64,000 nt of DNA, taken from NCBI RefSeq assembly GCF_053078305.1, contig NZ_CP166879.1, one strand, 5' to 3'. How positions within the stretch are numbered: position 1 is the first letter of the stretch; every line of letters starts with the position of its first letter. The position numbers were made by a program, and so were the translations under genes. Of the stretch, positions 40,771 through 41,204 are shown piece after piece. The notes below the pieces were generated by a model that did not search any database, was not told where the DNA came from, and was given only the letters and a program-made list of their open reading frames with translations.

Positions 40771-40790
40771 TACTGATGATATATCCAGGT
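40771..40790. promoter_or_regulatory. LexA box (SOS box) upstream of symE
   Basis: TACTGATGATATATCCAGGT fits CTG-N10-CAG, about 80 bp upstream of symE. Confidence 0.5.
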
Positions 40791-40795
40791 ATTTA

Positions 40796-40872
40796 GCGCG
40801 GTGCGGATGTGCGCCAACACACCCGCACCGCTAATCACAATCACTATTTATAGGGAATAGCAGTTATGACTG
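40796..40872 (-). ncRNA. symR: SymR antisense sRNA (antitoxin RNA of SymE), approximate bounds
   Basis: Minus-strand TAGAAT -10 at 40879-40884 inside the symE 5' end; transcript would overlap the symE start and SD; GCGGTGCGG...CCGCACCGC palindrome at 40797-40836. Confidence 0.4.
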
Positions 40873-41204
40873 ATACGCATTCTATTGCACAACCGTTCGA
40901 AGCAGAAGTCTCCCCGGCAAATAACCGTCAATTAACCGTGAGTTATGCGAGCCGCTACCCGGATTACAGCCGTATTCCCGCCATCACCCTGAAAGGTCAG
41001 TGGCTGGAAGCCGCCGGTTTTGCCACTGGCACGGCGGTAGATGTCAAAGTGATGGAAGGCTGTATTGTCCTCACCGCCCAACCACCCGCCATCGAAGAGA
41101 GCGAACTGATGCAGTCGCTGCGAAAGGTGTGCAAGCTATCGGTGCGTAAACAAAAGCAGGTGCAGGAATTTATTGGGGTGATTAGTAGCAAAACGCCACG
41201 CTAA
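40866..41204 (+). CDS. symE: SOS-induced toxin SymE (AbrB/SpoVT-fold endoribonuclease-like)
   Basis: 112-aa ORF closely matching K-12 SymE ([21 protein letters not shown]...). Confidence 0.85.

Follow-up and report, generated by a model that had tools for sequence, protein, structure and literature searches.

A symE/SymR locus of Escherichia coli with a layout of the immigration control region unlike that of K-12

The region described here is most probably (roughly 0.93) the canonical E. coli symE/SymR locus, set in a version of the yjiA–yjiS immigration control region (ICR) that differs from the K-12 haplotype. It lies within a 64-kb stretch of DNA that was analysed as a whole and is referred to as the window, and positions are those of the window unless they are given as locus positions. 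The locus is already known, being the E. coli symER pair in a known allele of the ICR. Both are textbook cases, symER as a sense/antisense pair under SOS control and the yjiA–yjiS region as a hotspot where restriction systems are swapped. The features of the locus are collected in Table 1.

Table 1. Features between the end of hsdR and yjiS, in window positions.
Feature	Position	Strand	Remarks
GC-rich hairpin GGCCGGATA-N8-TATCCGGCC	40659..40684	+	Read from the sequence, just past the hsdR stop (40651)
Conserved symER module	40736..41183	+	Block common to the window and K-12
LexA box TACTGATGATATATCCAGGT, CTG-N10-CAG	40771..40790	+	Orthologue of the K-12 yjiW/symE box by position
SymR antisense RNA	40871..40795	-	77 nt, two hairpins; Rfam RF01809
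symE Shine-Dalgarno AGGGA	40852..40856	+	9 nt before the ATG; opposite SymR loop 1
symE CDS	40866..41204	+	Intact ORF; ATG at 40866, TAA at 41202-41204; 112 aa
symR promoter -10 hexamer TAGAAT	40884..40879	-	Inside symE codons 5-7
Haplotype-specific segment, 56 bp	41184..41239	+	Last 6 symE codons and stop (SSKTPR*) plus hairpin; without clear K-12 counterpart
TCCCCCCTCA motif	41240..41249	+	Junction; its TCA, read on the minus strand, is the yjiS stop
yjiS (DUF1127)	41247..41411	-	PF06568, 46.6 bits; convergent with symE

The protein encoded by symE is readily assigned to its family. A Pfam search matched SymE_toxin (PF08845) over the entire profile (positions 1–54 of 54) with 76.7 bits against a cut-off of 29, and this AbrB/MazE-like domain corresponds to residues 20–71 of SymE. 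The protein is identical to K-12 SymE at 100 of 109 residues (92%), only a single base differs from K-12 between the ATG and codon 22, and the nucleotide sequence equals that of the symE stretch annotated WP_001672350.1 in E. coli strain A16. A PDB sequence search with SymE as the query returned zero matches and thus no relative of known structure. The original description made SymE an RNase-like toxin that had arisen from the AbrB/MazE fold. The K-12 RefSeq record names it a nucleoid-associated protein, and the account of SymE within a 2024 review (PMC11894785, citing Thompson et al. 2022) presents it as a DNA-binding protein for which endoribonuclease activity was not found, and as a non-specific DNA binder that compacts the nucleoid when overproduced. 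The RefSeq name and this account make the plain label "toxin" a dated one for SymE.

The LexA box upstream of symE shares 19 of its 20 bases with the K-12 box, the difference being a right half-site of CCAG here versus ACAG in K-12. The box is located at the same distance from SymR as in K-12, with 4 nt between it and the SymR 3' end, which would place it over the symE promoter. The TACTG-N10-CAG skeleton is found six times in the window versus 1.0 time expected by chance, and an AT-rich spacer is present only in the copy at 40771–40790. A second candidate LexA box at 40765–40780 (CTGTAT...) was rejected by inspection as it has no CAG half-site. The CCAG form of the box is found in five of six aligned E. 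coli sequences, and several accepted E. coli LexA boxes have a CCAG right half-site, for example those of uvrB, dinI and recN. The change to CCAG may give the box an affinity that differs from that of the K-12 box. The sequence immediately before the start codon differs as well, with GGAGA in K-12 at the position of the AGGGA Shine-Dalgarno sequence. Most of the six aligned sequences have the CCAG box and AGGGA, and K-12 is the odd one out. At the level of sequence the symE promoter has the operator that SOS control would call for. The K-12 gene, symE (yjiW), has a reported LexA site, is SOS-induced and shows strong induction by damage (PMC1891008).

SymR was identified when the full 64-kb window was scanned against Rfam, which gave a full-length match to RF01809 (model positions 1–77 of 77) with 94.3 bits versus a gathering score of 61 and E = 3.6e-17. 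The 5' end of the match at 40871 is base 6 of the symE CDS, and the RNA would be perfectly complementary to the symE 5'UTR, the Shine-Dalgarno sequence, the ATG and the next 3 nt. The predicted fold features two strong hairpins, as described for SymR, with a minimum free energy of -40.1 kcal/mol (z = -5.9 versus shuffles). Five of the 77 positions differ from K-12 SymR, and four of these fall within loop 1, which faces the symE Shine-Dalgarno region. The two-hairpin fold is predicted alike in five E. coli strains; the changes seen among these strains are all one-sided and of the wobble type, with no double compensatory changes, because the divergence among them is too low, and the assignment of SymR to its family is therefore based on the Rfam score. 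In strain Ecol_AZ146 (locus positions 4196–4272) SymR stem-loop 2 has an inverted apex, reading CGCCAA instead of TTGGCG; this inversion flips the tip of the hairpin and breaks the loop-closing pair alone.

The putative -10 hexamer of the symR promoter ends 7 nt before the 5' end that the Rfam match gives for SymR. The sense-strand CATTCT at 40878–40883 overlaps this minus-strand TAGAAT, and mutation of CATTCT to CACTCC in K-12 abolished SymR (Kawano et al., PMC1891008). A generic sigma-70 and terminator scan of 40600–41650 called neither the symE promoter nor the symR promoter nor any terminator, so the assignment of both promoters is based on orthology to the K-12 experiments and not on consensus strength. 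A promoter-like match of the same scan at 40678..40651 on the minus strand was set aside since it is within chance expectation. The initial annotation had pointed to a recognisable SymE, a LexA-box-like site in front of it, and a minus-strand TAGAAT inside the 5' end of symE that would drive an antisense RNA across the ribosome-binding site, as described for SymR. Each of these elements is present at the sequence level: the TAGAAT is the -10 element targeted by mutation in K-12, the full-length RF01809 match lies across the ribosome-binding site, and the alignment to K-12 symR that had been proposed as a check gives a match at 72 of 77 nt.

In K-12, LexA represses symE, SymR lowers both translation and the mRNA level, and Lon degrades SymE (PMC1891008). 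The steps of the mechanism proposed for this locus are carried over from the K-12 experiments on near-identical sequence. LexA bound at 40771–40790 would hold the symE promoter off until DNA damage occurs. A stable 77-nt SymR would be transcribed from the promoter within symE codons 5–7 and would pair with the symE 5'UTR, the Shine-Dalgarno sequence and the start codon, blocking translation and bringing the mRNA level down. Any SymE protein that is made would be degraded by Lon, and overproduced SymE, with its AbrB/MazE fold, would stop growth and condense the nucleoid by non-specific DNA binding. LexA binding, SymR transcription and SymE activity are expected in this strain by likeness to K-12. 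For the function of SymE, the expectation derives from the 92% identity to the K-12 protein, with the caveat against a full carry-over that the last SymE residues differ from those of the studied allele.

At its 3' end the locus departs from K-12. Alignment showed no homology to K-12 before ~40736, homology from there to 41183, and homology resuming at 41240. The first of the two downstream breaks (41183/41184) is located inside symE at codon 106 and the second at 41239/41240. As a result of the first break the SymE tail is SSKTPR here versus AGKQKVA in K-12. The remainder of the intervening segment contains a hairpin at 41212–41236 with a 10-bp stem (-20.2 kcal/mol, z = -3.3) that is followed by three U only, and symE and yjiS are convergent, 42 bp apart, with this hairpin without a U-tract between them. 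Homology to K-12 restarts at TCCCCCCTCA, which is 7 nt past the yjiS stop. The yjiS gene is a conserved framework gene that bounds the ICR. The stop codons of symE and yjiS are separated by 42 bp (41205–41246) in the window versus 7,583 bp in K-12, where mcrB, mcrC, yjiV' and yjiT are found between them. The distance of 42 bp had been given exactly in the initial annotation, which had also suggested that the K-12 segment holding mcrBC is missing, and K-12 does not share the symE–yjiS adjacency. The absence of the segment is confirmed, but this description was incomplete, as yjiV' and yjiT are absent too; the indel boundary, which alignment to K-12 was to define, is located inside symE rather than after it.

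A codon-degenerate pattern scan of species-representative genomes for the alternative symE tail gave zero matches. The junction hairpin was found at 15 loci of the species-representative genomes, none of them enterobacterial or apparently related to the symE locus: 13 in one Proteobacteria MAG, one in an Actinomycetales MAG and one in Byssovorax. The 23-nt palindrome CCCCTTCCCCANACGGGAAGGGG is a dispersed repeat of the Proteobacteria MAG, Centralia_MAG_377, with 17 copies on 13 contigs, and this repeat seems unrelated to the E. coli junction hairpin.

The frequency of the arrangement was determined in 5,426 complete E. coli genomes. The symER module is present, at a coverage of at least 80%, in 2,859 of the 5,426 (about half). 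The window-type symE|yjiS junction is found in 919 of the 5,426 genomes, in 917 together with the same hsdR 3' end, the K-12-type symE|mcrB junction in 595/5,426, and the O157-type symE|GmrSD junction in 1,287/5,426. The three junction types sum to 2,801, which is ~98% of the number of symE-positive genomes. The genomes that bear the window-type junction diverge by up to ~6% over 901 bp. Among the matches listed, the window-type segment and tail always occur together with the yjiS junction, and all 595 K-12-type matches span the whole junction query; the SymE tail therefore appears to move with the downstream cassette. With the cassette boundary located inside symE, each downstream cassette supplies its own SymE C-terminal tail. 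The yjiS–yjiA region has been described as a variable immigration control region with replaceable restriction cassettes (PMC2481252, PMC3874165), and the frequencies of the window-type layout match these published descriptions. The symE–yjiS layout is a common, natural E. coli haplotype and very probably not a recent deletion.

A recent deletion is nonetheless the alternative that fares best among the rival explanations. The adjacency would then have arisen from a K-12-like ancestor in one step, the mcrBC-yjiV-yjiT block being lost through recombination between TCCCCC(C)TCA repeats. In K-12, TTTCCCCCTCA follows the symE stop at a distance of 61 nt and TCCCCCCTCA lies at the yjiS stop, a short direct repeat that brackets the 7.58-kb mcrBC-yjiV-yjiT block (locus positions 11444 and 3923, minus-strand reading). 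A single copy sits precisely at the junction in the window. The motif is rare elsewhere: the 64-kb window has no further copy, which speaks for the deletion, and a third K-12 copy is found inside hsdS at locus position 12446. However, a one-step event would have kept the K-12 tail and hairpin, while the window features the tail SSKTPR and a different hairpin. The K-12 tail without mcrB was found in no genome, as seen from the 595 of 595 matches that span the junction query. The presence of the junction in 919 genomes with a divergence of up to ~6% also argues against a recent event, as does the upstream cassette, which differs from K-12 as well. Because the tail and the hairpin differ and an intermediate genome was not found, the one-step deletion is unsupported and is regarded as very unlikely.

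The symE 3' flanks of K-12 and of the window are loosely alike by eye, each featuring a stop codon, GTTT.CTCCC, a hairpin, and TTTCCCCC(C)TCA. This likeness would be compatible with an insertion that duplicated a short stretch, and equally with a deletion involving short repeats. A speculative extension of the preferred reading, the canonical symER locus in a natural ICR haplotype, is that TCCCCC(C)TCA marks a preferred site of cassette insertion or excision, that the break at symE codon 106 is a second such boundary, and that SOS-induced symE may read antisense into yjiS; this extension is improbable, if somewhat less so than the one-step deletion. In the preferred reading itself, symE sits between two exchangeable cassettes, with a type I hsdM-hsdS-hsdR cassette upstream and an empty slot downstream. 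The downstream slot is occupied by mcrBC in K-12 and by GmrSD in O157:H7 and is empty here, with the result that the 56-bp haplotype-specific stretch joins symE directly to yjiS.

The surroundings of symE follow those of strain A16, in which the gene order is btsT, yjiX, yjiA, brnA/brnT, a restriction endonuclease gene, hsdM, hsdS, hsdR, symE, yjiS, yjiR, rpn and mdtM. The 901 bases at 40600–41500 are 100% identical to A16 and the window is 98–99% identical elsewhere. The order in K-12 is yjiA, mrr, hsdR, hsdM, hsdS, symE/symR, mcrB, mcrC, yjiV', yjiT, yjiS and yjiR. Comparison of A16 with K-12, O157, MS15046 and O104:H4 shows alternative restriction cassettes at this location between yjiA and yjiS, and the K-12-type arrangement, with mcrB and mcrC downstream of symE and hsdS upstream, is not the one found here. 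The upstream type I cassette has the order hsdM-S-R, in which hsdR adjoins symE here while hsdS does so in K-12. Its HsdR features a HindI-like C-terminal domain and is a distant relative of EcoR124I HsdR. The GC-rich hairpin just past hsdR is part of this cassette, has no K-12 counterpart and was not called by the terminator scan.

Several further observations were made on the cassettes and on the rest of the window. The hsdM gene (34288–35903) lacks 4 bp (CAGC) after 35017 compared with the intact 539-aa hsdM of A16; with the deletion the reading frame is lost ahead of the NPPF methyltransferase motif, and two ORFs remain, 34288..35043 and 35040..35903. The type I R-M system may be inactive in this strain, or the deletion may be a sequencing error. 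Most of hsdS (~35900–37200) cannot be aligned to A16, with flanks at 98–99% and 36406–36644 (239 bp) aligning at 94%, which suggests that the recognition specificity differs from that of A16. A brnA/brnT toxin-antitoxin pair, together with a separate gene for a 388-aa restriction endonuclease (33058..34224), is located at ~32285–34224 between yjiA and hsdM; their identities were taken from the annotation of the near-identical strain A16. In K-12 this yjiA-side slot is occupied by mrr. In strain 23CRST026, all that is left of the type I system is a 210-bp 3' remnant of hsdR (locus positions 3843–4052) beside symE with a 3'-5' exonuclease gene before it, and the symE–yjiS junction is unchanged despite this remnant; the upstream cassette is therefore independently replaceable. 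A gene for an Rpn-family recombination-promoting nuclease is located at 43242–44186 on the minus strand as an intact 314-aa ORF, and the corresponding K-12 gene, rpnD, carries a pseudogene annotation. The window also contains three tandem tRNA-Leu(CAG) genes at 13062–13384 and a REP-like element at 5025–5103 with an Rfam naRNA4 match on both strands.

The frameshift in the neighbouring hsdM bears on a second alternative, in which symER is a non-functional remnant in decay, its LexA box weakened and the C-terminus of SymE altered. Selection on the region may have been relaxed, one base of the LexA box is changed, and the C-terminal tail has been replaced. On the other hand, the symE ORF is intact with a full-length Pfam domain, the CCAG box and AGGGA are the majority forms among the aligned strains with K-12 as the outlier, the tail variant is common to 919 genomes, and SymR scores far over the gathering threshold. 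Decay is considered even less likely than the one-step deletion. That the adjacency is an artefact of assembly or scaffolding is already refuted, with a negligible residual chance, by the identical 901-bp stretch in an independent complete genome and by the same arrangement in 917–919 complete genomes.

With these alternatives weighed, the significance of the canonical symER locus in its non-K-12 haplotype is small beyond correct annotation. As by-products, the three main symE-downstream haplotypes were defined with their frequencies in complete E. coli genomes, a cassette boundary was located inside symE, and K-12 proved atypical in its LexA box and around the Shine-Dalgarno sequence.

The closest known system is K-12 symE/SymR (yjiW/RyjC), a type I toxin-antitoxin pair described by Kawano et al. 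2007 (PMC1891008). The two proteins belong to the same family with 92% identity, and the SymR RNAs have the same 77-nt length and register, with a 5' end 6 nt into the CDS and 72 of 77 nt in common. The symR -10 hexamers are identical, the LexA boxes correspond in position, and the yjiA–yjiS neighbourhood is the same. In contrast, SymE from the window is one residue shorter with its last residues changed, and the flanking cassettes are unlike on both sides.

The cassette variation of the ICR (Sibley and Raleigh 2004), as relayed in PMC2481252 and PMC3874165, is one in which the framework genes yjiA and yjiS/yjiR are kept. The window shares with it the alternative restriction cassettes between framework genes, and symE is an internal anchor across the three haplotypes. 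The window haplotype differs in that it is without a type IV cassette (McrBC or GmrSD) downstream of symE, and in that its upstream part consists of a type I M-S-R cassette, a brnTA pair and a separate restriction endonuclease gene.

The O157:H7/O104:H4-type locus features an EcoAI-family type I cassette followed by symE, GmrSD/DUF262 and yjiS. Over alignment columns 51–200, which cover the upstream region and SymR, the window shows 0 differences to MS15046 and two bases of difference to O157 F8092B, both upstream of the LexA box. The O157:H7/O104:H4-type locus and the window have the same CCAG LexA box and the same AGGGA Shine-Dalgarno sequence, whereas O157 features a K-12-like AGKQKV tail and a GmrSD/DUF262 cassette between symE and yjiS.
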